The notes below the pieces were generated by a model that did not search any database, was not told where the DNA came from, and was given only the letters and a program-made list of their open reading frames with translations. From a virus, in UHGV virus genome UHGV-0047852: a DNA stretch of 11,553 nt, one strand, 5' to 3'. Of the stretch, positions 1 through 11,553 are shown in pieces. The translations under genes and the position numbers were made by a program. Position 1 is the first letter of the stretch. Every line of letters starts with the position of its first letter.

Positions 1-46
1 AGGTTGCTCCGGGCTATGAAATAGAAAAATGAATCCGTTGAAGCCT
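1..46. other. Host chromosomal flank (bacterial B arm of attL)
   Basis: Sequence immediately left of the att core differs from the lambda P arm and matches my recollection of the E. coli attB left side (…TGAAGCCTGCTTTTTTATACTAA). Confidence 0.7.
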
Positions 47-61
47 GCTTTTTTATACTAA
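47..61. other. attL: attL core (15-bp lambda O region GCTTTTTTATACTAA) = prophage left junction
   Basis: Exact 15-bp lambda att core, followed on the right by lambda P' arm sequence and int. Confidence 0.9.
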
Positions 62-134
62 GTTGGCATTATAAAAAAGCATTGCTTATCAATTTGTTGC
101 AACGAACAGGTCACTATCAGTCAAAATAAAATCA
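62..134. promoter_or_regulatory. attL P' arm with IHF H' site (TATCAATTTGTTG, 87-99) and tandem Int arm-type sites (CAGGTCACTAT / CAGTCAAAAT, about 107-127)
   Basis: IHF consensus WATCAANNNNTTR and the arm-type motif are visible directly; position between core and int matches lambda. Confidence 0.8.
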
Positions 135-1205
135 TTATTTGATTTCAATTTTGTCCCACTCCCTGCCTCTGTCATCACGATACTGTGATGCCATGGTGTC
201 CGACTTATGCCCGAGAAGATGTTGAGCAAACTTATCGCTTATCTGCTTCTCATAGAGTCTTGCAGACAAACTGCGCAACTCGTGAAAGGTAGGCGGATCC
301 CCTTCGAAGGAAAGACCTGATGCTTTTCGTGCGCGCATAAAATACCTTGATACTGTGCCGGATGAAAGCGGTTCGCGACGAGTAGATGCAATTATGGTTT
401 CTCCGCCAAGAATCTCTTTGCATTTATCAAGTGTTTCCTTCATTGATATTCCGAGAGCATCAACATGCAATGCTGTTGGGATGGCAATTTTTACGCCTGT
501 TTTGCTTTGCTCGACATAAAGATATCCATCTACGATATCAGACCACTTCATTTCGCATAAATCACCAACTCGTTGCCCGGTAACAACAGCCAGTTCCATT
601 GCAAGTCTGAGCCAACATGGTGATGATTCTGCTGCTTGATAAATTTTCAGGTATTCGTCAGCCGTAAGTCTTGATCTCCTTACCTCTGATTTTGCAGCGC
701 GAGTGGCTGCGACCGGGTTTGTTGTTATATGGCCTTCAGCTATAGCCTCTCGGAATGCATCGCTCAGTGTTGATCTGATTAACTTGGCTGATGCCGCCTT
801 GCCCTCGTCTATGTATCCATTGAGCATTGCCGCAATTTCTTTTGTGGTGATGTCTTCAAGTGGAGCATCAGGCAGACCCCTCCTTATTGCTTTAATTTTG
901 CTCATGTAATTTATGAGTGTCTTCTGCTTGATTCCTCTGCTGGCCAGGATTTTTTCGTAGCGATCAAGCCATGAATGTAACGTAACGGAATTATCACTGT
1001 TGATTCTCGCTGTCAGAGGCTTGTGTTTGTGTCCTGAAAATAACTCAATGTTGGCCTGTATAGCTTCAGTGATTGCTATTCGCCTGTCTCGGCCTAATCC
1101 AAACTCTTTACCCGTCCTTGGGTCCCTGTAGCAGTAATATCCATTGTTTCTTATATAAAGGTTAGGGGGTAAATCCCGGCGCTCATGACTTCGCCTTCTT
1201 CCCAT
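135..1205 (-). CDS. int: Lambda-type tyrosine integrase Int (356 aa)
   Basis: ORF translation matches lambda Int essentially end to end (MGRRRSHERRDLPPNLYIRNNGYY … HELRSLSARLYEKQ … GHKSDTMASQYRDDRGREWDKIEIK), including the C-terminal catalytic region; sits adjacent to attL. Confidence 0.97.
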   Translation of the reverse strand: MGRRRSHERRDLPPNLYIRNNGYYCYRDPRTGKEFGLGRDRRIAITEAIQANIELFSGHKHKPLTARINSDNSVTLHSWLDRYEKILASRGIKQKTLINYMSKIKAIRRGLPDAPLEDITTKEIAAMLNGYIDEGKAASAKLIRSTLSDAFREAIAEGHITTNPVAATRAAKSEVRRSRLTADEYLKIYQAAESSPCWLRLAMELAVVTGQRVGDLCEMKWSDIVDGYLYVEQSKTGVKIAIPTALHVDALGISMKETLDKCKEILGGETIIASTRREPLSSGTVSRYFMRARKASGLSFEGDPPTFHELRSLSARLYEKQISDKFAQHLLGHKSDTMASQYRDDRGREWDKIEIK

Positions 1206-1401
1206 TTCTGATCCTCTTCAAAAGGCTACCTGTTACTGGTCGATTTAAGTCAACCTTTACCGCTGATTCGTGGAACAGATACTCTCTTCCATCCTTAACC
1301 GGAGGAGGGAATATCCTGCACTCGCGTACCCATCGACGAACTGTTTCAAGGCTTCTTGGGCGTCGCTGGCGTGCGTTCCACTCCTGAAGTGTCAAGTACA
1401 T
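1183..1401 (-). CDS. xis: Excisionase Xis (72 aa)
   Basis: Translation MYLTLQEWNARQRRPRSLETVRRWVRECRIFPPPVKDGREYLFHESAVKVDLNRPVTGSLLKRIRNGKKAKS matches lambda Xis; 3' end overlaps the int start as in lambda. Confidence 0.95.
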   Translation of the reverse strand: MYLTLQEWNARQRRPRSLETVRRWVRECRIFPPPVKDGREYLFHESAVKVDLNRPVTGSLLKRIRNGKKAKS

Positions 1402-1426
1402 CGCAAAGTCTCCGCAATTACACGCA

Positions 1427-1448
1427 AGAAAAAACCGCCATCAGGCGG
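1427..1448 (-). terminator. Intrinsic terminator on minus strand (CCGCC-tgat-GGCGG stem followed by U7), overlapping the orf55 stop codon
   Basis: Plus strand reads AAAAAACCGCCATCAGGCGG; on the minus strand this is a 5-bp GC stem plus a T-run. Sits between orf55 and xis. Confidence 0.5.
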
Positions 1449-1608
1449 CTTGGTGTTCATTCAGTTCTTCAATTCGAATATTGGTTACGTCTGCATGTGC
1501 TATCTGCGCCCACAGCATCCAGTGGTCATAGCAGTCGCTGATGTTCTCGGCTTCGATAACTCTGTTGAATGGTTCTCCATTCCATTCACCTGTGACTCGG
1601 AAGTGCAT
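1441..1608 (-). CDS. Lambda orf55-like small protein (55 aa; MHFRVTGEWNGEPFNRVIEAENISDCYDHWMLWAQIAHADVTNIRIEELNEHQAA)
   Basis: Translated by hand from the minus strand; below the size cut-off of the supplied ORF track. Position just beyond xis matches lambda orf-55. Confidence 0.7.
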   Translation of the reverse strand: MHFRVTGEWNGEPFNRVIEAENISDCYDHWMLWAQIAHADVTNIRIEELNEHQAA

Positions 1609-1850
1609 TTATCATCTCCATAAAACAAAACCCGCCGTAGCGAGTTCAGATAAAAGAAATCCTCGTCAGTGCGAGGATGCTGTTCATTGCTGCTATACAC
1701 TTTTTTGCTCTCAACGTAAGCGGTAGCCCATTCTGTTGGGTTGGTGCAGTTGCTTTTAGGAAATGCTATTTACCCCTTAAATGTCGGCTGAAAGAGCTAA
1801 AATCCATGCAAAAAATTTACGCAATTTTGTGTATTATTGTGCAGTAAGTA

Positions 1851-2453
1851 ATGAGCTATTTTCTGCGCAAAAAATGGATGGTAAATTTGTCCGGGTCAGG
1901 AAAAATTTTATGGGCGCTAAACATGAAAAAAGATTCGTATCCTTATTTGATTTGCATGACAGTTTCAGGGCTGATCTTTATTTTCCTTTTCTTCTGGTGG
2001 CGGGCAGATATCTACAGGGTCACGTTTCTTAATCAGAGTATATCCCACTATTACATTCTGTTTAGCATGGGAATAGCTTTTCTGTTATCTCTGTTTTGGG
2101 TTAAGAAGGGGATAGTAAAACAAAGCGGCTGGAAGAGTCTGTCAGCATACCTTAAGGTTTATGCAGGGATGTGCATATTTGCTGGATTTTTTCTGATTAT
2201 ACCCCTTACGACACTAACTTATTTTTTGCCTGGAGAGACATCGTCTTATGTTGCACCGTATCGGTATACTTCCGGTAGTTCAAAAAGTTGTTCTGGAGCT
2301 GAGGTGGATGACCCCGATCTACATGAGAATATTCGCATTTGCTATCCGTATGGCAATTATGAGTACGATAATATTATCTATGTTGAAAAGAAAATTAATA
2401 TATTAGGTGCGGTAGTGACATATGCACAGACCGCGCGTGATGATACTGAATGA
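1851..2453 (+). CDS. Hypothetical integral membrane protein (200 aa; about 3 N-terminal TM helices plus a hydrophilic C-terminal domain of about 80 aa); moron in the ea8.5/ea22 position
   Basis: 200-codon open frame in AT-rich DNA where stops are frequent; hydrophobic stretches YLICMTVSGLIFIFLFFWW, YYILFSMGIAFLLSLFWV, VYAGMCIFAGFFLIIPLTTLTYFL. Opposite strand to flanking phage genes. No strong SD at any candidate start (1851, 1878, 1923), so the start is uncertain. Confidence 0.6.
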   Translation: MSYFLRKKWMVNLSGSGKILWALNMKKDSYPYLICMTVSGLIFIFLFFWWRADIYRVTFLNQSISHYYILFSMGIAFLLSLFWVKKGIVKQSGWKSLSAYLKVYAGMCIFAGFFLIIPLTTLTYFLPGETSSYVAPYRYTSGSSKSCSGAEVDDPDLHENIRICYPYGNYEYDNIIYVEKKINILGAVVTYAQTARDDTE

Positions 2454-2487
2454 TATAGTATATAGCGGGCAAGTTTTAGTTAATTTA

Positions 2488-2520
2488 TCGAGGTAATATA
2501 ATTTACCTCGACTCGTTTGT
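2488..2520 (+). terminator. Candidate intrinsic terminator downstream of the membrane-protein gene (TCGAGGTAA-tataat-TTACCTCGA, then CTCGTTTGTT)
   Basis: Perfect 9-bp inverted repeat with 6-nt loop about 35 nt after the stop codon; the T-tract is interrupted. Confidence 0.4.
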
Positions 2521-2663
2521 TCTGGTATTAATATTTCGCTTTACGACCGATTTTTATCTGATGATATCATGCGGTTTTCATATACTGACTTACTGTCTTT
2601 TCTCCGTTAGCGATTTTCTCCTGCTCAGCGATGATTTTATCTTTGGCTTCTAGTTAATTTCGC

Positions 2664-2885
2664 TCACTTCGAACCTCTCTGTTTACTGATAAGCTCCAGA
2701 TCTTGCTGGCAACTGGCACAAGTCCGACAACCCTGAACGGCCAGTCGTCTTCGTTCATCTATCGGATCGCCACACTCACAACAATGAGTGGCAGATATAG
2801 CCTGGTGGTTCAGGCGGCGCATTTTTATTGCTGTGTTGCGCTGTAATTCTTCAATTTCTGATGCTGAATCAATTATGTCTGCCAT
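2664..2885 (-). CDS. TraR/DksA-family C4 zinc-finger protein (73 aa)
   Basis: Two CxxC pairs (CCECGD … CRTCASC) in a 73-aa protein, typical of phage TraR-like proteins. Stop overlaps a 5-codon remnant of the ea22 start (GTGAGCGAAATTAAC-TAG, minus strand 2650-2667). Confidence 0.8.
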   Translation of the reverse strand: MADIIDSASEIEELQRNTAIKMRRLNHQAISATHCCECGDPIDERRRLAVQGCRTCASCQQDLELISKQRGSK

Positions 2886-2940
2886 CTTTCATTAATCCCT
2901 GAATTGTTGGTTAATACGCTTGAGGGTGAATGCGAATAAT

Positions 2941-2961
2941 AAAAAAGGAGCCTGTAGCTCC
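2941..2961 (-). terminator. Intrinsic terminator on minus strand (GGAGC-ctgta-GCTCC followed by U6) between orf61-like and TraR-like genes
   Basis: Plus strand AAAAAAGGAGCCTGTAGCTCC; on the minus strand this is a hairpin followed by a TTTTTTATT tract. Confidence 0.5.
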
Positions 2962-2983
2962 CTGATGATTTTGCTTTTCATGT

Positions 2984-3199
2984 TCACCGTTCCTTAAAGA
3001 CGCCGTTCAACATGCCGATCGCCAGGCTTAAATGAGTCGGTGTGAATCCCATCAGCGTTACCGTTTCGCGGTGCTTCTTCAGTACGCTACGGCAAATGTC
3101 ATCGACGTTTTTATCCGGAAACTGCTGTCTGGCTTTTTTGATTTCAGAATTAGCCTGACGGGCAATACTGCGAAGGGCGTTATTATGTTCTATTGTCAT
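2984..3199 (-). CDS. Lambda orf61-like small protein (71 aa from MTIEHNNALRSIARQ…)
   Basis: Internal ATG at 3199 has a GAGG SD 5 nt upstream; the 117-aa track ORF is an N-terminal over-extension. The C-terminal two-thirds matches my recollection of lambda orf61. Confidence 0.65.
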   Translation of the reverse strand: MTIEHNNALRSIARQANSEIKKARQQFPDKNVDDICRSVLKKHRETVTLMGFTPTHLSLAIGMLNGVFKER

Positions 3200-3206
3200 A
3201 TTGGCC

Positions 3207-3958
3207 TCACACTTCGAATGCCAGTTGAGGGGTAAAGACGTCCCGTTCAGCGTTGTAATTAAGTGAACTGGCACTGTTGAATGATTCAATGCGTTCCACA
3301 AGAACTTGCGTACGGGTTTCTTTACTTGCGGGAGCATATGGCGAACCTACCCAGGATTTGTCGATGCCTATATTTCTTGCGACGTTCGTGCTGTCTGCAG
3401 ACGAAAGCGGTACATGAGTAAAAATGTCTTTATTTAACATCCGTAACCCATGAATCTTGGTGATTGGGTAGCCGTACTGATCTACAACATGACGTATAAG
3501 ATCGCGTAGTTTAGCCCGACACGCTCTCGGTCGTTTTGCATCGTATTCCCCCATCGAGCCGATGCAGACGCGGGGAAACTCATGGCACAGACGAATAAAT
3601 CGCTCATCTGGTTCGTTCATGTGCCACACCGGAGCACCAATAAATTTACCGTGAGGCCATGCCGCAATCAGGGCGTCATTCTCTTCACTGGTTCCGCCGA
3701 TAACATCCGGGATAACCGCGAATGAGAAACGAGGGTGATTGCCCCAGCGTTCAACAAATTGTAATATTCATTCCAGTCTACGGCCTTGTTTTTTGTCCAG
3801 AATGTGAATGCACCATTATCAAGAGCAAATGATTGGGTGACTTCGGAAGCCAGATCAATCTGAGCTGGATTAGCAAAACTGATGAATGCGTGTCTGCCTT
3901 TCCAGGCTTTCAACGCACAGGTATCGGGAGTTATTGGACCACCGTGAAAATGAATCAT
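3207..3958 (-). pseudogene. Frameshifted gene for an unrecognised protein of about 250 aa (N-terminal part [31 protein letters not shown]…; C-terminal part …AVIPDVIGGTSEENDALIAAWPHGKFIGAPVWHMNEPDERF…QLAFEV) occupying the lambda orf63 position
   Basis: Two adjacent minus-strand ORFs (3668..3958 and 3207..3629) in different frames; extending the downstream frame upstream gives continuous plausible protein back to about 3768, so a single 1-nt indel near 3760-3770 would join them. The ATG at 3958 overlaps the orf60a-like stop (ATGA). Confidence 0.6.
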
Positions 3959-4113
3959 ACACTCTCCCGTTTATTATTTATCTCCTCAGCCAGCCGCTGG
4001 GCTTTCAGCGGATTTCGGATAACAGAAAGGCCGGGAAATACCCAGCCTCGCTTTGTAACGGAGTAGACGAAAGTGATCGCGCCTACCCGGATATTATCGT
4101 GAGGATGCGTCAT
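3955..4113 (-). CDS. Lambda orf60a-like small protein (52 aa, [52 protein letters not shown])
   Basis: Hand-translated; ATG overlaps the exo stop (ATGA) as in lambda; C-terminus diverges from lambda. Confidence 0.65.
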
Positions 4114-4790
4114 CGCCATTGCTCCCCAAATACAAAACCAATTTCAGCCAGTGCCTCGTCCATTTTTTCGATGAACTCCGGCACCATCTCGTCAAAACTC
4201 GCTATGTACTTTTCATCCCGCTCAACCACGACATAATGCAGGCCTTCACGCTTCATCCGCGGGTCATAGTTGGCAAAGTACCAGGCATCTTTTCGCGTCA
4301 CCCACATGCTGTACTGCACCTGGGCCATGTAAGCCGACTTTATGGCCTCGAAACCACCGAGCCGGAACTTCATGAAATCCCGGGAGGTAAACGGGCATTT
4401 CAGCTCAAGGCCATTGCCGTCACTGCATAAACCATCGGGAGAGCAGGCGGTGCGCATACTTTCGTCGCGATAGATGATCGGGGATTCAGTAACATTCACG
4501 CCGGAAGTGAACTCAAACAGGGTTCTGGCGTCGTTCTCGTACTGTTTTCCCCAGGCCAGTGCCTTAGCGTTAACTTCCGGAGCCACACCGGTGCAAACCT
4601 CGGCAAGCAGGGTGTGGAAGTAGGACATTTTCATGTCAGGCCATTTCTTTCCGGAGCGGGGTTTTGCTATCACATTGTGAACCTCTGAAGCGGTGATGAC
4701 GCCGAGCCGTAATTTGTGCCACGCATCATCCCCCTGTTCGACAGCTCTCACGTCGATCCCGGTACGCTGCAGTATAATGTCCGGTGTCAT
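4110..4790 (-). CDS. exo: Lambda exonuclease Exo (Red-alpha, 226 aa)
   Basis: Translation [65 protein letters not shown]… matches lambda Exo. Confidence 0.97.
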
Positions 4791-5572
4791 GCTGCCACCT
4801 TCTGCTCAGTGGCTTTCTGTTTCAGGAATCCAAGAGCTTTCACTGCTTCGGCCTGTGTCAGTTCTGACGATGCGCGAATGTCGCGGCGAAATATCTGGGA
4901 ACAGAGCGGCAATAAGTCGTCATCCCATGTTTTGTCCAGGGCAATCAGCAGAGTGTTAATCTCCTGCATGGTTTCATCGTTAACCGGAGTGATGTCGCGT
5001 TCCGGCTGACGTTCTGCAGTGTATGCGGTATTTTCGACAATGCGCTCGGCTTCATCCTTGTCATAGATACCAGCAAATCCGAAGGCCAGACGGGCACACT
5101 GAATCATGGCTTTATGACGTAACATCCGTTTGGGATGCGACTGCCACGGCCCCGTGATTTCTCTGCCTTCGCGGGTTTTGAATGGTTCGCGGCGGCATTC
5201 ATCCATCCACTCGGTAACGCAGATCGGATGATTGCGGTCCTTGCGGTAAATCCGGCATGTGCAGGATTCATTGTCCTGCTCAAAGTCCATACCATCAAAC
5301 TGCTGGTTTTCATTGATGATGCGGGACCAGCCATCAACGCCCACCAACGGAACGATGCCGTTCTGCTTATCAGGGAAGGCGTAAATTTCTTTCGTCCACG
5401 GATTAAGGCCGTACTGGTTGGCGACGATCAACAATGCGATGAACTGCGCATCGCTGGCATCACCTTTAAATGCCGTCTGGCGAAGAGTGGTGATCAGTTC
5501 CTGTGGGTCGACAGAATCCATGCCGACACGTTCAGCCAGCTTCCCTGCCAGCGTTGCGAGTGCTGTACTCAT
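4787..5572 (-). CDS. bet: Single-strand annealing recombinase Bet (Red-beta, 261 aa)
   Basis: Translation [82 protein letters not shown]… matches lambda Bet; overlaps the exo start. Confidence 0.97.
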
Positions 5573-5577
5573 CCGTT

Positions 5578-5874
5578 TTATACCTCTGAATCAATATCAA
5601 CCTGGTGGCGGGCAATAGTTTCAACCATGTACCGTATGTGTTCTGCCATGCGTTCCTGAAACTCAACATCGTCATCAAACGCACGGGTAATGGCTTTTTT
5701 GCTGGCCCCGTGGCGTTGCAAATGATCGATGCATAGCGATTCAAACAGGTGCTGGGGCAGGCCTTTTTCCATGTCGTCTGCCAGTTCTGCCTCTTTCTCT
5801 TCACGGGCGATCTGCTGGTAGTGACGCGCCCAGCTCTGAGCCTCAAGACGATCCTGAATGTAATAAGCGTTCAT
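5578..5874 (-). CDS. gam: RecBCD inhibitor Gam, short form (98 aa)
   Basis: Translation [60 protein letters not shown]… matches lambda GamS. An in-frame TAA lies 19 codons upstream, so the long form is not encoded. Confidence 0.95.
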
Positions 5875-5950
5875 GGCTGAACTCCTGAAAATGGCTGTGA
5901 AAATATCGCCCGCGAAATGCCAGGCTGATTAGGAAAACAGGAAAGGGGGG

Positions 5951-6157
5951 TTAGTGATTCAGGCCGTTACCGCGTCCGTCGAGAAAAACTTCCACGAGCA
6001 AATCACGGGTATAAGTGCGCTCGATGCCGCGATGCAGATAAAGCCGTCCGCGTAAATTAGCTGATGCAGTCCAGGTACCATCTTTGTGTTTGACCAGCAT
6101 TCCTGGCATGACCGCACCTCGATTAACGGTCTGCGTTCCGTAATGTTGATGAACCAT
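5951..6157 (-). CDS. Hypothetical small protein in the lambda kil position (68 aa from MVHQHYGTQTVNRGAV…; alternative upstream start at 6241 gives 96 aa)
   Basis: ATG at 6157 has AGGAG SD with 5-nt spacer; the protein does not resemble lambda Kil or cIII. Confidence 0.5.
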   Translation of the reverse strand: MVHQHYGTQTVNRGAVMPGMLVKHKDGTWTASANLRGRLYLHRGIERTYTRDLLVEVFLDGRGNGLNH

Positions 6158-6434
6158 AAAAACTCCTGCCCGTAAGCTGGGCTGCTGAACATATAAAGAC
6201 TTCTGCGCGTATTCAGGCGGTGGATGGCCGCCGGTTGTCATAACTAAGCCGCCTCGTTGAAGCGACTAAGGTATGAAATGTTGAGTTAATTTCAGCTGGT
6301 CACACCGACGTTCACGCGTCCGTTTCACCCCTCGCACTCCCCGAAGCCTGCTGAAATTCAAACTGCGGATCTAAGCGGTCATCGCAACGGTGAATCAGGT
6401 AGTTGCCGTATCGTTGTGTTGTTGCGATGAACTT

Positions 6435-6463
6435 ATTTAAAACTATAGTTGTTTTATCGTCAA
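6435..6463 (-). promoter_or_regulatory. Candidate leftward early promoter pL (-35 TTGACG, 17-bp spacer, -10 TTAAAT) embedded in operator repeats
   Basis: Minus strand TTGACGataaaacaactatagttTTAAAT is closely parallel to the PR element at 7491-7519 (TTGACTaaaaacaaccatagtttTAATCT). Confidence 0.5.
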
Positions 6464-6512
6464 CAACAAAAGTTGTTTTATTGGTTGTTTTAGATATAAC
6501 TGGTTGTATTTA
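6448..6512. repeat. OL operator repeat array: three direct copies of GTTGTTTTA (6448-6456, 6472-6480, 6484-6492) plus GGTTGTATTTA, sharing the GGTTGT half-site with OR
   Basis: Repeats visible directly; the same GGTTGT/ACAACC half-sites form a palindrome at OR. Confidence 0.55.
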
Positions 6513-6602
6513 GGATGGATTTATTTTGTGACTTGAATCGCATAGCGATAACTGAAGCGAGGTTATGGTGGTTTTTTTAACGGTGTGTGTGATGAGGGGA
6601 GG

Positions 6603-6631
6603 GCAAAAGAAAACCCGGCACGGTGACCGGG
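6603..6631 (-). terminator. Intrinsic terminator on minus strand downstream of the repressor gene (CCCGG-8 nt loop-CCGGG followed by UUUUCUUUUG)
   Basis: Plus strand GCAAAAGAAAACCCGGCACGGTGACCGGG; the reverse complement gives a hairpin plus U-tract about 120 nt past the repressor stop. Confidence 0.55.
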
Positions 6632-6752
6632 ATTCTTACGCCGTTAGGTAAAGATATTATTGCGGTGGCTTAATATTACTACCTAGAGCAAAGATAGGAA
6701 TTAGTTCTTTACTGAATGAGCACAATGCCCAGTTGATAATTTTTAATTGGTA

Positions 6753-7442
6753 CTACCCATGCTTCCTATATGTCTGCGGCATGCTCCCAATAACCTTACC
6801 GAAGATGAACACCCGGTTCATCTCGTCTTTCTCGATCGGGTCCCACGGTGAGTAGCTTTTGTTATCAGAGATGACCAGCAGCTTATCCTTCATCATTTGC
6901 AGGCGCTTTACATGGGCTGTGTCGTCGTACAGAAACGCATAGATACCATCACCGTCGAAAGATTTAACTGTGATATCAACGAACAGCAGATCACCTGGTT
7001 CGATCGTTCCTGACATGCTGTCACCACGCACGTTAATGATGCGGATATTTTCCGCCTTCCTACCATCGAACATGTGACGAGCATCGTCAAACGAGTACTC
7101 AACCGAGCGTAGAACTTCTACAAACTCACGGTTGATGACTCCCGGCCCAGCACTGACTTCTATATCAAGAACGTCAATCTTGAAGTATTTGGAATGGCTG
7201 ACAGTTGATTGTATTGGTTGCACTGTACTGTCTGACATATTTCCAACGCCAGAAGATAACCATTCTGCGCGCACACCCAAAGCGTTCGCGATCTCCACGA
7301 TTTTAGTTGTTTGATTAGCTTTCCCTGTTTCGATTTTCTGAATAGCAGCCTGGCTAACCCCGACCAAATCCCCAAGCGCCTTTTGTGTAAGGCCTCGCGC
7401 TAATCTGGCTTCTTTAAGTCTTTCTGAGAGTGTTGTTTTCAT
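6753..7442 (-). CDS. CI-like prophage repressor (229 aa; N-terminal XRE-type HTH, C-terminal LexA/S24 peptidase-like autocleavage domain)
   Basis: HTH region LARGLTQKALGDLVGVSQAAIQKIETGK; S24 signature GDSMSGTIEPGDLLFVD with downstream KRL. Start chosen at MKTTLSERLKEA (7442); the 251-aa track ORF runs into the operator. Confidence 0.85.
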   Translation of the reverse strand: MKTTLSERLKEARLARGLTQKALGDLVGVSQAAIQKIETGKANQTTKIVEIANALGVRAEWLSSGVGNMSDSTVQPIQSTVSHSKYFKIDVLDIEVSAGPGVINREFVEVLRSVEYSFDDARHMFDGRKAENIRIINVRGDSMSGTIEPGDLLFVDITVKSFDGDGIYAFLYDDTAHVKRLQMMKDKLLVISDNKSYSPWDPIEKDEMNRVFIFGKVIGSMPQTYRKHG

Positions 7443-7450
7443 AGTCCAAA

Positions 7451-7519
7451 TGTACAACCAAGGTTTTATTCCATCAAACGAAAATGGTTGTTGACTAAAA
7501 ACAACCATAGTTTTAATCT
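7451..7519 (+). promoter_or_regulatory. OR/PR region: 25-bp palindromic operator ATGGTTGTTGACTAAAAACAACCAT (7484-7508), extra half-site TGTACAACCA (7451-7460), PR -35 TTGACT (7491-7496) and -10 TAATCT (7514-7519); divergent PRM-like element for the repressor on the minus strand
   Basis: Perfect dyad symmetry, 17-bp spacer promoter, GGAGG SD before the cro-like ATG at 7547. On the minus strand TTGATG-17-TACATT ends 6 nt before the repressor ATG, suggesting a leaderless transcript. Confidence 0.65.
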
Positions 7520-7546
7520 TGATTCAAATTAACCACGGAGGTTGTT

Positions 7547-7777
7547 ATGAACCCAGCTATCAAAACAGCGATCAATATCGTTGGTTCACAAAAGAAACTG
7601 GGCGCTGCTTGCGAAGTTTCACAGCAGGCCGTCTATAAGTGGCTTCACAACAAAGCAAAGGTATCCCCTGAACATGTCGGCAGCATTGTTACGGCTACTG
7701 GTGGAGTAGTGAAGGCATACCAGATTCGCCCGGATCTTCCGAAGTTGTTTCCACACACCGAAAAGAACGCAGCTTAA
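7547..7777 (+). CDS. Cro-like small HTH regulator (76 aa, YdaS-like)
   Basis: Small HTH protein (GSQKKLGAACEVSQQAVYKWL) divergent from the repressor with strong SD; resembles Rac YdaS-type Cro from memory. Confidence 0.75.
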   Translation: MNPAIKTAINIVGSQKKLGAACEVSQQAVYKWLHNKAKVSPEHVGSIVTATGGVVKAYQIRPDLPKLFPHTEKNAA

Positions 7778-7846
7778 ATTTCCATTTCACGCTCTTTAAC
7801 AATAAGCAATCAACTTAACAGTCAATTCAAACTAAAGGAGTCAATT

Positions 7847-8173
7847 ATGCAACCACTTACATACCAACAGACTAGCGGATTTAGCCCGACTGCGGTGATA
7901 AATCGTTCTCAAACAAAACAGGTGCCAGGCCACGAAAAAATCCGTGATGCCGTCCGCGCCTGGTCGGCTGTAGATAATCAGGATGTCGTTGCCACACTCA
8001 TTGTGAATGAGTATCGGGAGCAGGGCGGCGGCACCATCGATTTCCCTGATGATGTCAGCCGTGCACGCCAGAAGCTGTTCCGCTTCCTCGATAACAAATT
8101 CGATTCTGAAAAATACCGAAATAATGTGCGTGAACTGACCCCGGCAATTCTGGCGGTACTACCGCTGGAATAA
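7847..8173 (+). CDS. YdaT-like (CII-position) protein, apparently C-terminally truncated (108 aa)
   Basis: Similarity from memory to Rac YdaT (motifs EYREQGGG and PAILAVLP); AAAGGAG SD. The ORF stops soon after the PAILA(V/I)LP motif whereas YdaT continues about 30 aa. Confidence 0.55.
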   Translation: MQPLTYQQTSGFSPTAVINRSQTKQVPGHEKIRDAVRAWSAVDNQDVVATLIVNEYREQGGGTIDFPDDVSRARQKLFRFLDNKFDSEKYRNNVRELTPAILAVLPLE

Positions 8174-8403
8174 AAGATGCTCTCAAACACACTTATCTCG
8201 GTTATGAAACCAAAGAACTGATTGATGTCGTAACCGGTGAAATCACCACCATTCAGTCATTACGTCATACCTCCGATCTCGATACCGGAGAGATGTATGT
8301 CTTCCTGTGTAAGGTTGAAGCCTGGGCGATGAATATTGGCTGCCACCTGACTATTCCGCAGAGCTGCGAGTTCCAGCTGCTCCGCGACAAGCAGGAGGCG
8401 TAA
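8134..8403 (+). pseudogene. 3' remnant of a ybcN-like nin-region gene lacking its 5' half and start codon
   Basis: Frame open from 8134 to the TAA at 8401-8403, which overlaps the ninE ATG (TAATG). Only an internal ATG at 8293 without a usable SD; position immediately before ninE matches DLP12 ybcN. Confidence 0.5.
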
Positions 8404-8573
8404 TGGCTACACCGCTTATTCGTGTCATGAACGGACACATCTACAGAGTATCTAATCGTCGTAAGCGTAAGCCTGAGCTGAAGCCATCCGAAATACCAAC
8501 ACTGCTCGGATATACCGCTAGCCTGGTTGATAAAAAATGGTTGCGACTGGCAGCAAGGAGGAATCATGGCTGA
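8403..8573 (+). CDS. ninE: NinE-like protein (56 aa, [56 protein letters not shown])
   Basis: Hand-translated (below track cut-off); shares the RRKRKP motif and C-terminal basic region with lambda/DLP12 NinE. Confidence 0.75.
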   Translation: MATPLIRVMNGHIYRVSNRRKRKPELKPSEIPTLLGYTASLVDKKWLRLAARRNHG

Positions 8574-8856
8574 TTTGAGAAAAGCAGCGCGTGGTCGGGA
8601 ATGCCAGGTAAGAATCCCTGGCGTATGTAATGGCAATTCTGAGACGTCTGTACTGGCACATATCCGGCTGGCTGGATTGTGCGGTACCGGTATCAAACCG
8701 CCAGACCTGATTGCCACCATTGCATGTTCTGCCTGCCACGACGAAATCGACCGCCGCACGCATTTTGTTGACGCTGGATATGCAAAAGAATGCGCGCTGG
8801 AAGGTATGGCGAGAACGCAGGTTATCTGGCTGAAAGAGGGGGTAATTAAGGCGTGA
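8566..8856 (+). CDS. ybcO: YbcO-like DUF1364 protein (96 aa from [23 protein letters not shown]…), Cys/His-rich putative nuclease
   Basis: AGGAGG SD 4 nt before the ATG at 8566; matches DLP12 YbcO from memory. The track ORF from 8527 is a TTG over-extension. Confidence 0.8.
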
Positions 8857-9215
8857 ATACTTACCACATCACACTACCCTGGCCGCCGAGCAATAACCGC
8901 TACTACCGCCATAATCGAGGGCGCACGCACATCAGCGCAGAAGGGCAGGCATACCGCGATAACGTCGCCCGAATCATTAAAGGCTCAATGCTGGATATCG
9001 GTCTGGCTATGCCTGTGAAAATCCGCATTGAGTGCCACATGCCGGATCGCCGTCGCCGTGACCTGGATAATCTGCAAAAAGCCGCTTTTGACGCACTCAC
9101 TAAAGCAGGTTTCTGGCTGGATGATGAGCTGGTCGTTGATTACCGCGTTGTGAAGATGCCTGTTACCAAAGGTGGGAAGCTGGAACTGACCATCACTGAA
9201 CTGGGAGATGAATGA
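8853..9215 (+). CDS. rusA: Holliday junction resolvase RusA (120 aa)
   Basis: Translation [25 protein letters not shown]…[35 protein letters not shown]… is near-identical to E. coli RusA; GTG start overlapping the ybcO stop (GTGA). Confidence 0.93.
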
Positions 9216-9352
9216 TGTTTGAGTCTTATATGGCAGAACGTCTTCGCCGCCGCTGGGTGCGCCTGCGCTTATATCGTTTCCCCGGTTCTGTTTTGACCGA
9301 TTACCGAATACTGAAGAGTTACGCCAAAACCCTGACAGGAGCAGGAGTATGA
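9212..9352 (+). CDS. ylcG: YlcG-like small protein (46 aa, [46 protein letters not shown])
   Basis: Hand-translated; ATG overlaps the rusA stop; gene order rusA-ylcG-quuD as in DLP12. Confidence 0.7.
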
Positions 9353-9437
9353 AGTCAGAGATAACAATCAACTAATACTGTTTTGTTGATTTTTGCTTGT
9401 AATTGGCGTTTTGGTCTGATTTTTGTGGAGTAAGTTG

Positions 9438-9821
9438 ATGCGTGATATTCAGATGGTTCTTGAGCGTTGGGGAGCGTGGGCGGCTAATAATCATGAAGAT
9501 GTGACCTGGTCGTCCATTGCCGCCGGTTTTAAGGGATTAATTCCTTCAAAAGTAAAATCTCGCCCGCAATGTTGTGACGATGACGCGATGATCATTTGCG
9601 GGTGCATGGCCCGTCTGAAAAAGAACAACAGCGATTTGCACGATTTATTAGTAGATTATTATATAGTCGGTATGACATTCATGTCACTGGCAGGTAAGCA
9701 TTGCTGCTCTGATGGTTATATCGGGAAAAGGTTACAAAAGGCTGAGGGCATAATTGAAGGGATGTTAATGGCATTAGATATCCGGTTAGAGATGGATATC
9801 GTTGTTAATAACTCTAATTAA
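9438..9821 (+). CDS. quuD: Late-gene antiterminator Q (QuuD-type, 127 aa)
   Basis: Translation [60 protein letters not shown]… matches DLP12 QuuD; GGAG SD 7 nt upstream. Confidence 0.9.
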
Positions 9822-9844
9822 TACGCCAATTATTTACTAAAAGT

Positions 9845-9872
9845 TATTAAAAATGGGGCGTTGAAACGCCCC
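9845..9872 (-). terminator. Hairpin GGGGCG-ttgaaa-CGCCCC with U-tract on the minus strand; candidate terminator for nmpC
   Basis: Perfect 6-bp GC stem; reverse complement is followed by ATTTTTAATAACTTTT. Confidence 0.45.
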
Positions 9873-9960
9873 CAAAAATAAAGGGTAATATATAACAGAA
9901 GGTTTGTATAGTTAGAAGCAAGGTTGTGCTTCTAAAGGAAGTGGCTTGAGGGAGCCACTT

Positions 9961-9999
9961 ATATGTTGGGGAGGCAAAGCCTCCCACAACATATCTTTT
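9961..9999 (+). terminator. Long hairpin (ATATGTTGGGGAGG-caaa-GCCTCCCACAACATAT) followed by CTTTT; candidate terminator downstream of quuD
   Basis: 14-bp stem with one bulge plus a short U-tract, 11 nt before the convergent nmpC stop. Confidence 0.45.
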
Positions 10000-10009
10000 A
10001 GTAATCAAA

Positions 10010-11092
10010 TTAGAACTGGTAAACCATACCTACAGCAACGATATCATCGGTAGCAACGCCAGATGCTTTCGTGAAATCGCTCTTATCAATCAGGTTGATT
10101 TTGTAGTCAACAAAAGTGGACATATTTTTGTTGAAGTAATAGGTTGCACCTACATCAACATACTCAACCAGGTCCTGATCACCCCAAACACCCAAGTCTT
10201 TTCCTTTAGAATGCAGGTAAGCAACGGATGGACGCAGGCCGAAGTCGAACTGATATTGTGCAACAGCTTCGAAGTTTTGTGCTTTGTTGGCAATATGGTT
10301 ATTACCAAAAACAGTCATGTTCTGGGTTTCAGAATAGGTGGTGGCCAGATAGATGTTGTTCGCATCATATTTCAGACCAGCTGCCCATACTTCAGCATTT
10401 TGACCAGAAGCATTCAGACCGTTGTTACCGTAGATAACCTGATTATTAGTGCGATCAGATTTAGCATAGGTTGCACCCACGCCGAATCCTTCATACTCAT
10501 AAGTAGTTGAGAAACCGAAACCATCGCCATTAGTTTCAGTTACTTCATTTCGGTCATTTTTGCCCTGATACTGAGCTGCAAAGTTCAGGCCATCAACCAG
10601 ACCAAAGAAGTCGTTGTTACGATAAGTTGCAACACCTGTGGTGCGACCAGTCATGAATACATCTGTTTGGGTCCAGGTATCGCCACCGAATTCTGGCAGA
10701 ACGTCGGTCCATGCACCAATATCGTATGCTACACCGTAGTTACGGCCATAATCGATGGAGCCGTAGTCACCGAATTTCAGGCCAGCGAAGGCAAGACGGG
10801 TTTTATCTTTGGAGGAACCTTGAGATTCAGCGCGGTTGCCTTTGAATTCATATTCCCACTGACCGAAACCAGTCAGTTGATCGTTGATTTGGGTTTCACC
10901 TTTGAAGCCAAGACGGGCATAAGTAGTATCACCATCATCTGCATCATTAGAGGAGAAGTAGTGCTTAGCATTAACTTTCCCGTACAGATCCAGCTTGTTA
11001 CTGTCTTTATTATAAATTTCAGCTGCCTGAGCAGACATCGCCATCAGTACTGATGCAGCTACAGCAGAAATTGCCACTGTTAATTTTTTCAT
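10010..11092 (-). CDS. nmpC: Outer membrane general porin, NmpC/OmpC family (about 360 aa with signal peptide [23 protein letters not shown]), apparently intact
   Basis: Signal peptide then [16 protein letters not shown], typical of OmpC/OmpF/NmpC porins; C-terminal …VAVGMVYQF ending in Phe. Opposite strand to quuD, as nmpC is in DLP12. Confidence 0.9.
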
Positions 11093-11478
11093 CGTGAGAC
11101 CTTTTTTTGAACATTTATTAAAAAATGATGCCCTGCGCGACAAATATTCATCTAATCAATGTGATTAATTCAAGATGTAAGTTTTAGATTCTTATTTAAA
11201 TTGTGATCTAGATCTCTATTTTTATCTGAACTTTTTCTAATGCATGCTGTGCATGACTATTCTCTGAAAGAAAATAAATTTGGTAGCTAAATTATATTAA
11301 AGGTTGTTATTTATAAGTGTTCTATAATTCATCTCTTTAATTTAAATTCACTGAAAATAACGTCGGAAATTATTTAATGATTATTTGTTTATTTTTCCTT
11401 ATGTGATTGTGGTGGTGTTTTGAACACTCGATATCATTCTCACAAATATTGTTTAGAGGTTTACGTACGTAAAAAATT

Positions 11479-11553
11479 GGGTAATGACTCCAACTTATTG
11501 ATAGTGTTTTATGTTCAGATAATGCCCGATGACTTTGTCATGCAGCTCCACCG
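11479..11553 (-). mobile_element. IS1 terminal fragment (23-bp terminal inverted repeat GGTAATGACTCCAACTTATTGAT plus the 3' end of insB), continuing beyond the window
   Basis: The 75 bp match the reverse complement of the IS1 right end (…CGGTGGAGCTGCATGACAAAGTCATCGGGCATTATCTGAACATAAAACACTATCAATAAGTTGGAGTCATTACC) as I recall it. Confidence 0.85.

Follow-up and report, generated by a model that had tools for sequence, protein, structure and literature searches.

In the 11,553-nucleotide stretch of DNA analyzed here (the window), the immunity region of a prophage is followed across 7847-8403 by a short ydaT-like open reading frame (ORF) and a fragment resembling ybcN, and then by the nin/Q module. 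This arrangement raises the question of whether a replication module was lost at this locus and, if so, by what kind of event and with what consequence for the element. The original prediction had described the locus as a deletion junction in a probably cryptic prophage. Our analysis makes it very probable that a single microhomology-level deletion in a lambda-like prophage at att-lambda removed the replication module and left a decaying cryptic element.

The prophage and its deletion junction

Bases 2155-13707 of the source locus match the window at 100% identity, and the window is therefore made up of the final 11,553 bases of contig NODE_859 (15,223 bp; coverage 5.6) in the human-gut metagenome assembly ENA ERZ504749. 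On the bacterial side (positions 1-2154 of the source locus), the prophage is flanked by homologues of ybhJ and ybhC; it therefore lies at the classical att-lambda site and not at the DLP12 site. A lambda-type attL, composed of the core GCTTTTTTATACTAA and then the P' arm (approximately 40-240), adjoins a lambda-like int gene (135-1205, minus strand). The element is an Escherichia coli lambda-like (lambdoid) prophage integrated at att-lambda next to ybhC. According to the ORF map and family scans, int is followed by xis and several small early-left genes, also on the minus strand, and the left arm contains a TraR-like gene, a DUF1317 gene, exo, bet, gam, and kil. Close to int, and in opposite orientation to the early-left genes, positions 1851-2453 (plus strand) encode a 200-aa predicted membrane protein, the last 88 residues of which match phrog_1416, a family of unknown function; this looks like a moron gene.

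The immunity switch is preserved. The gene for a CI-like repressor (6753..7508, minus strand), with HTH_3 and Peptidase_S24 domains by Pfam and annotated as an S24 family peptidase in relatives, is intact, its homologues being annotated as 229 aa from an internal start. The regulator in the Cro position, a YdaS/Cro-like helix-turn-helix (HTH) protein of 76 aa (7547..7777, plus strand; Pfam YdaS_toxin, 4.1e-17; P22_Cro, 8e-5), is likewise intact and 100% identical to its relatives. The cI-cro intergenic region carries repeated ACAACCA(A/T)(A/G)GTTTTA motifs (7454-7518) and a palindrome with a 9-bp stem, ATGGTTGTT...AACAACCAT (7484-7508), which probably represent the OR operators. A repeat search of the cI-cro-ydaT intergenic regions returned only operator-like half-site repeats, and the CP-933P YdaT operator TTGATTN6AATCAA was matched at chance level only (2 found versus 1.2 expected). 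Between kil and the repressor gene, the minus strand of a 511-bp region (6242-6752) contains no ORF of 40 aa or longer and no recognizable N gene; a terminator-like hairpin is present at 6631-6614 (minus strand). Scanning the whole window against Rfam at gathering thresholds yielded zero RNA families; neither the scar nor 6242-6752 thus contains a put/nut-type element or another known RNA.

To the right of the scar, the first intact gene is ninE (8403..8573, plus strand), which has its own Shine-Dalgarno (SD) sequence, AGGAGG (8393-8398), and is annotated as ninE in relatives, with a Pfam NinE match slightly under the curated cutoff (23.8 versus 25 bits; E 4.1e-05). It is followed on the same strand by intact ybcO (8566-8856), rusA (8853-9215), ylcG (9212-9352), and quuD, encoding the Q antiterminator (9438-9821), which closes the nin/Q module (8566..9821). 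An nmpC/ompC-like porin gene (10010-11143, minus strand) comes next, and beyond it lies a terminal sequence of 73 nucleotides (11481..11553), which is recognizable as an IS1 terminus, in agreement with 'IS1 family transposase' annotations. This IS1 end (GGTAATGACTCCAACTTATTGATAG...) begins precisely where similarity to the relatives stops (11480), and the contig stops inside IS1. IS1 divides the porin gene from any remaining late region.

The alignment proposed with the original prediction, against intact ydaT and ybcN, was carried out with two intact comparators, the prophage of E. coli PigCaeca_1 (NZ_CP039298.1) and that of strain 600468 (NZ_CP025849.1), the latter at att-lambda next to ybhC, and it placed the breakpoint exactly at 8171-8172. 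When window positions 7500-8620 were searched by megablast against 5,426 complete E. coli genomes, thousands of matches were obtained and none crossed the junction; the best matches all ended, at 100% identity, at query base 673, which corresponds to window position 8172. Relative to PigCaeca_1, window positions 7400-8172 are 100% identical and 8171-11480 differ by one single-nucleotide polymorphism (SNP; 99.97% identity), with 4,412 bp extra in PigCaeca_1 between them. PigCaeca_1 was the closest intact relative, by a wide margin on the right flank; in the searches, LR-06 equaled PigCaeca_1 in matching both flanks. For strain 600468, window positions 3956-8172 correspond to 5457-9673 and 8171-10954 to 15890-18673, and the 6,216 bp between have no counterpart in the window. 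Both flanks thus align in unchanged order with intact relatives (99-100% identity) and meet at a clean break, and therefore the arrangement is not a chance pattern.

At the level of single bases, the left flank extends to 8172, where ydaT is interrupted after codon 108 of 179, and the right flank takes up at 8171-8173 within ybcN, at codon 75/76 of its 151 codons. The parental ydaT site reads ...CCGCTGGAATA (in longer form, ...ACTACCGCTGGAATA) up to the break and continues with TCGCGG..., and the parental ybcN site reads ...CCTTGGGTA (in longer form, ...ACTCCACCTTGGGTA) up to the break and continues with AAAGATG..., while the window has ...CCGCTGGAATAAAAGATG... at this position. The deletion junction (8171..8172) is accordingly a 2-bp microhomology, TA, common to both parental sites. 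Upstream of this TA, 9 of 15 bases agree between the two sites, an event of approximately 3% by chance given the TA. Inspection of the junction for an insertion sequence (IS) remnant, a repeat, or a recombinase site found none. Judged by its bases, this junction is the signature of an illegitimate, microhomology-level deletion, and the predicted fusion of a truncated ydaT to ybcN is confirmed to the base.

Two gene remnants and the missing replication module

We examined the two coding sequences interrupted at the junction. The truncated ydaT, a gene in the cII position (7847..8173, plus strand), retains codons 1-108 of 179 and ends at a TAA (8171-8173) that arises across the junction, from the T and A of the microhomology and the first A of ybcN codon 76. 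Its 108-aa product has the C terminus ...TPAILAVLPLE*, so the earlier description of an ORF stopping at 8173 shortly after a PAILAVLP motif had the coordinates right. The label Rac-type ydaT is loose in that this is the cII-position gene of lambda-like phages, with no more than distant similarity (E about 0.002-0.004) to the YdaT proteins of known structure (8bt1 and 3c4r). Only positions 1-40 of 92 in the Pfam profile YdaT_toxin (PF06254; E 3.1e-12) and positions 1-94 of 168 in phrog_163, 'CII-like transcriptional activator' (E 1.4e-36), are covered by the stub.

YdaT has been described as the equivalent of CII, in which residues 3-90 form a POU-like HTH domain, residues 94-99 a hinge, and residues 100-124 helix alpha-6, which mediates tetramerization; the engineered fragment YdaT(1-96) from CP-933P is a monomer that shows no operator binding (PMC9986795). 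Residues 28-106 of the stub align to PDB 8bt1 and end at approximately native residue 86-88, a position estimated from the tag offset. By the published domain boundaries (PMC9986795), the stub mostly keeps the N-terminal POU-like HTH domain and, ending at residue 108 of 179, lacks the hinge and the long C-terminal helix that forms the tetramer. By analogy, the stub should remain a monomer without operator binding, at least as defective as YdaT(1-96); the proposal stays an analogy because homology to CP-933P YdaT is distant (E 0.002). We suggest that the ORF at 7847-8173 be annotated as a ydaT/cII-like pseudogene fragment.

On the other side of the junction, 8173..8403 (plus strand) is the 3' remnant of ybcN, which encodes an Orf/NinB-family recombination mediator; codons 76-151 and the stop codon are present, out of frame with the truncated ydaT. 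The remnant matches phrog_72 'NinB/Orf' at positions 83-158 of 161 (E 2.9e-23) and has the same sequence as residues 76-151 in YbcN of PigCaeca_1, which refines the predicted 3' half of a ybcN-like gene to its last 76 codons; it thus contains the C-terminal half of the protein, and the start and N-terminal half of a complete coding sequence (CDS) are missing. Full-length YbcN of PigCaeca_1 itself gives a weak, subthreshold match to Pfam NinB (PF05772; 19.4 bits versus a cutoff of 23.8), and a sequence search of the PDB returned no relative of YbcN. YbcN has been reported as an Orf-family protein that binds single-stranded DNA and SSB (PMC4118853).

As predicted, the reading frame of the remnant is open from 8134, right after a TGA at 8131-8133, to a TAA that overlaps the ATG of ninE (TAATG, 8401-8405), and it has neither an initiation codon nor an SD sequence before an internal ATG at 8293. 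The frame reads TDPGNSGGTTAGIKDALKHTYLGYETKEL...LLRDKQEA* and contains no ATG, GTG, or TTG upstream of 8293, from which a product of 36 aa would start; the sole purine-rich stretch, GGAGAG (8287-8292), abuts this ATG without a spacer and so leaves no usable SD spacing. With the remnant untranslatable from a proper start, YbcN function is presumably lost, and we propose to annotate 8173-8403 as a ybcN pseudogene fragment.

Comparison with PigCaeca_1 defines what is missing in the window: YdaT residues 109-179, O, P, a ren-like gene, four small genes, and YbcN residues 1-75. In PigCaeca_1, this interval encodes a 339-aa Phage_rep_O protein (Pfam, 8.6e-34) and a 233-aa Phage_lambda_P protein (Pfam, 1.1e-61), along with a ren-like winged-helix gene, a DUF4145 gene, a theta-like pseudogene, and two small ORFs. 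In strain 600468, the 6,216-bp interval begins with the remainder of ydaT and continues through O, P, ren, emrE, ybcK, and three further genes into the 5' part of ybcN. The size of the deletion depends on which relative serves as the reference (4.4 or 6.2 kb) and amounts to at least 4.4 kb. Within the PigCaeca_1 O gene, at positions 10969-11085 of the prophage locus, we found five iterons of approximately 22 nt (TTACCTGATTCGGGTAA-like) with a palindromic TTACC...GGTAA core, adjoining a tandem AT-rich 15-mer; this array appears origin-like, analogous to the lambda ori inside O. A search of the window for the iterons, allowing up to 3 mismatches, gave 0 matches. No convincing terminator was detected on the coding strand of the deleted interval.

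The earlier claim that no replication genes lie between cro/ydaT and ninE was borne out by the ORF map together with the Pfam and PHROG scans and extends across the window, in which O (Phage_rep_O), P (Phage_lambda_P), and other replication ORFs are all absent; this search covers the window, and the contigs that carry the allele are at most 15 kb long and end in IS1 or a repeat. Lambda-type replication requires O acting on its iterons and P recruiting host DnaB. Since origin, initiator, and helicase loader are absent, the element would be unable to replicate on its own, and we strongly infer that the prophage is replication-dead and cryptic.

Two further marks of decay were observed. A gene of phrog_887, a family annotated as queuine tRNA-ribosyltransferase-like (251 aa; 3207..3958, minus strand), is intact in PigCaeca_1 but has lost 1 bp near 3759 in the window, which divides it into ORFs of 96 and 140 aa; the gene is called in the same two parts in three junction-carrying contigs, including the source NODE_859. 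This shared frameshift and the IS1 insertion lend further weight to the view of the element as a decaying, cryptic prophage; with the replication module deleted, the element shows the loss of an essential module that characterizes cryptic lambdoid prophages. Independently of these marks, the window is a mosaic: positions 1-3181, the int-xis end, match strain 600468 (att-lambda) at 99.3% identity, 3182-3955 have no counterpart in that strain, and 2706-8172 match at 99.0% the PigCaeca_1 prophage, which has a different integrase and is located at icd.

We propose that one illegitimate deletion took at least 4.4 kb, from ydaT codon 109 through ybcN codon 75. The loss would have included the initiator O with its internal iteron origin, the helicase loader P, the ren-like gene, and a few accessory genes, and it would have left behind an intact CI-like/Cro-like switch, a 108-aa YdaT stub, an untranslatable ybcN tail, and intact ninE-ybcO-rusA-ylcG-Q. 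Such an element would persist solely as chromosomal DNA, without replication after derepression or excision, and as a decaying prophage it may still provide immunity, Red recombination, RusA, and the porin.

Distribution of the junction and alternative explanations

We determined how common the intact and the deleted arrangements are. Among 5,426 complete E. coli genomes, 2,203 have a ydaT that runs on through the left breakpoint and 2,912 a ybcN that runs on through the right one, while the junction occurs in none; the allele is therefore rare. Sixteen phage records match the intact ydaT(cII)-O stretch over at least 80% of the query, with 97.8-99.1% identity among the 12 listed, which include PhiR5_1, PhiR34_1, IdasGreatGrand, Turner, Lambda_4C10, 1W, 3W, and Perceval; P is annotated beside ydaT-O in most of these 12, and the junction was found in no phage record. 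Neither a junction 41-mer nor a junction 24-mer matched any of 185,579 GTDB genomes, a set of species representatives that is silent on strain-level presence. The 24-mer, CCGCTGGAATAAAAGATGCTCTCA, was found in eight different public contigs besides the window, with 0-15 substitutions relative to it. These carriers come from ENA metagenome and Logan run assemblies (NODE_-named, k141_-named, and Logan contigs), and their recurrence across different assemblers indicates a real, inherited allele.

Had the 108-aa form been the normal state of the protein, the deletion reading would have failed; as it is, the 179-aa YdaT runs across the breakpoint in the 2,203 complete genomes above and is intact in the phage records. 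From these matches, full-length ydaT and ybcN can be taken as the normal state and the junction as a genuine allele of a rare lineage. The 24-mer is a handy marker for this lineage, recurring in gut metagenomes and sequencing runs and absent from the 5,426 complete genomes. Two further contigs, AASEFB010000094.1 of GCA_012351685.1 and one in Logan ERR2030152, end exactly at the base equivalent to 8172; this suggests a fork in the assembly graph, and intact and deleted alleles, or two related prophages, could coexist there.

Four alternatives were weighed against deletional decay. The one that survives best is selected domestication, in which the deletion was kept for removing functions that harm the host upon derepression, i.e., YdaT/CII-like toxicity, P-mediated sequestration of DnaB, and in situ firing of the origin, while immunity, Red, RusA, Q, and the porin were kept and nin/Q might come under direct control of pR, as in nin5. 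In its favor, the allele persists at 0-15 SNPs of divergence across at least eight samples, the retained genes are intact, a deletion from O to ybcN arose independently in strain GF31, and published work has addressed the toxic effect of expressing YdaS/YdaT in Rac. However, the allele is rare and absent from the complete genomes, the scans of the deleted interval gave no convincing coding-strand terminator, and neutral decay fits the data equally well, with nothing that requires selection; we consider domestication unlikely. A stricter version, selected 'grounding', in which the origin, O, P, and active YdaT, potentially lethal in an unexcised derepressed prophage, were removed and ninE-ybcO-rusA-Q came to lie within approximately 0.9 kb of pR, seems to us more doubtful still. 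If it were true, the host would retain superinfection immunity together with a RusA/Q/Red cassette inducible by SOS, and would run no risk of runaway replication. A nin5-like removal of terminators, considered separately, was unsupported, as promoter and terminator scans of the window and the lost interval revealed no convincing terminator on the coding strand.

It is highly improbable that the deletion was made by a dedicated recombinase, such as the serine recombinase YbcK, or by an IS-mediated adjacent deletion. A recombinase-family gene, ybcK, does lie within the interval in strains 600468 and JNEC-KY204, and IS1 sits 3.3 kb to the right of the junction, but the closest relative of the right flank (99.97%) has no ybcK in its interval, and the breakpoints fall in two unrelated coding sequences that have only TA in common, with the agreement at 9 of 15 bases upstream of it noted above (approximately 3% by chance). 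An IS- or recombinase-mediated origin was rejected because neither repeats nor IS remnants are present at the junction.

We give hardly any credence to the possibility that the junction is an assembly chimera, with the immunity and nin regions drawn from two different prophages, the latter, e.g., from a DLP12-like prophage in the same sample. In its favor, the source is a low-coverage metagenome contig (coverage 5.6), window positions 7500-8620 match a median of 2 places per E. coli genome, and two contigs stop exactly at the junction. Yet the parental sites have only 2 bp in common, and no k-mer graph could therefore make the join; the chimera was rejected given that the same 24-mer recurs in eight contigs from different samples and with different assembly naming, which differ from one another by SNPs. 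Least credible of all is a normal mosaic variant, in which a short YdaT and a small ORF would be ordinary in functional lambdoid phages replicating through genes located elsewhere: lambdoid genomes are highly mosaic and the window is itself a mosaic of two relatives, but both coding sequences break off in mid-profile beside flanks approximately 100% identical to the full-length genes, the downstream piece has no start codon, the arrangement is found in 0 of the 5,426 complete genomes and in no phage record, and the remaining window has no replication-type ORF.

Altogether, a single microhomology-level deletion remains the preferred reading. The event is ordinary deletional decay of a lambdoid prophage, its allele unrecorded in complete genomes and without categorical novelty. 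The element should be annotated as a replication-defective prophage, and the significance of the finding goes little beyond annotation; it provides a further clean case of prophage decay by microhomology-level deletion and a natural truncation of YdaT close to one already studied in vitro.

Comparison with known prophages

Intact lambda-like prophages and phages share the order cI/cro/ydaT(cII)/O/P/ren...ybcN/ninE/ybcO/rusA/ylcG/quuD and 99-100% DNA identity with the window beside the scar; PigCaeca_1, strain 600468, PhiR5_1, PhiR34_1, IdasGreatGrand, Turner, and Lambda_4C10 have this layout, and strain 600468 also shares with the window the integration at att-lambda by ybhC and the lambda-type Int/Xis. 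Unlike these relatives, the window lacks 4.4-6.2 kb comprising the C-terminal part of YdaT, O and the iterons within it, P, ren, accessory genes, and the N-terminal part of YbcN. The engineered CP-933P YdaT(1-96) (PDB 8bt1; PMC9986795) resembles the stub in keeping the POU-like HTH domain without the C-terminal tetramerization helix, whereas the truncation in the window is natural, slightly shorter (to the equivalent of approximately residue 86-88), and in a distant homologue (E 0.002).

The lambda nin5 deletion invites a second comparison. Positioned between P and Q, nin5 does not impair replication. Both deletions are to the right of the immunity region and bring Q nearer to pR; in contrast to nin5, the deletion in the window begins within the cII-position gene and takes away the origin along with O and P, and no clear terminators were found in the lost interval.

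DLP12, Rac, and Qin are the classical cryptic prophages of E. coli K-12, which lost essential modules by deletions and IS insertions. Compared to them, the element in the window retains an intact immunity switch, the Red genes exo-bet-gam, and kil; it differs from DLP12 in residing at att-lambda, not argU, and in its truncated ybcN, which is intact in DLP12. Defective K-12 prophages keep a nin/Q region of the ybcN-ninE-ybcO-rusA-ylcG-quuD-nmpC type and act as gene reservoirs (PMC4118853). The family to which the window belongs spans apparently complete members, such as JNEC-KY204 with terminase, portal, and capsid genes, to truncated ones, and the PigCaeca_1 prophage itself ends at trkG after the lysis genes. 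Within the same family, the prophage of E. coli GF31 (NZ_CP172152.1; locus 6538-7313) carries an independent deletion that also destroyed the replication module and ends at ybcN, although there both ydaT and ybcN remain whole, O breaks off after approximately 110 codons and is fused next to ybcN, and Q is truncated as well. This second, independent deletion indicates that loss of the replication module is recurrent in these prophages.
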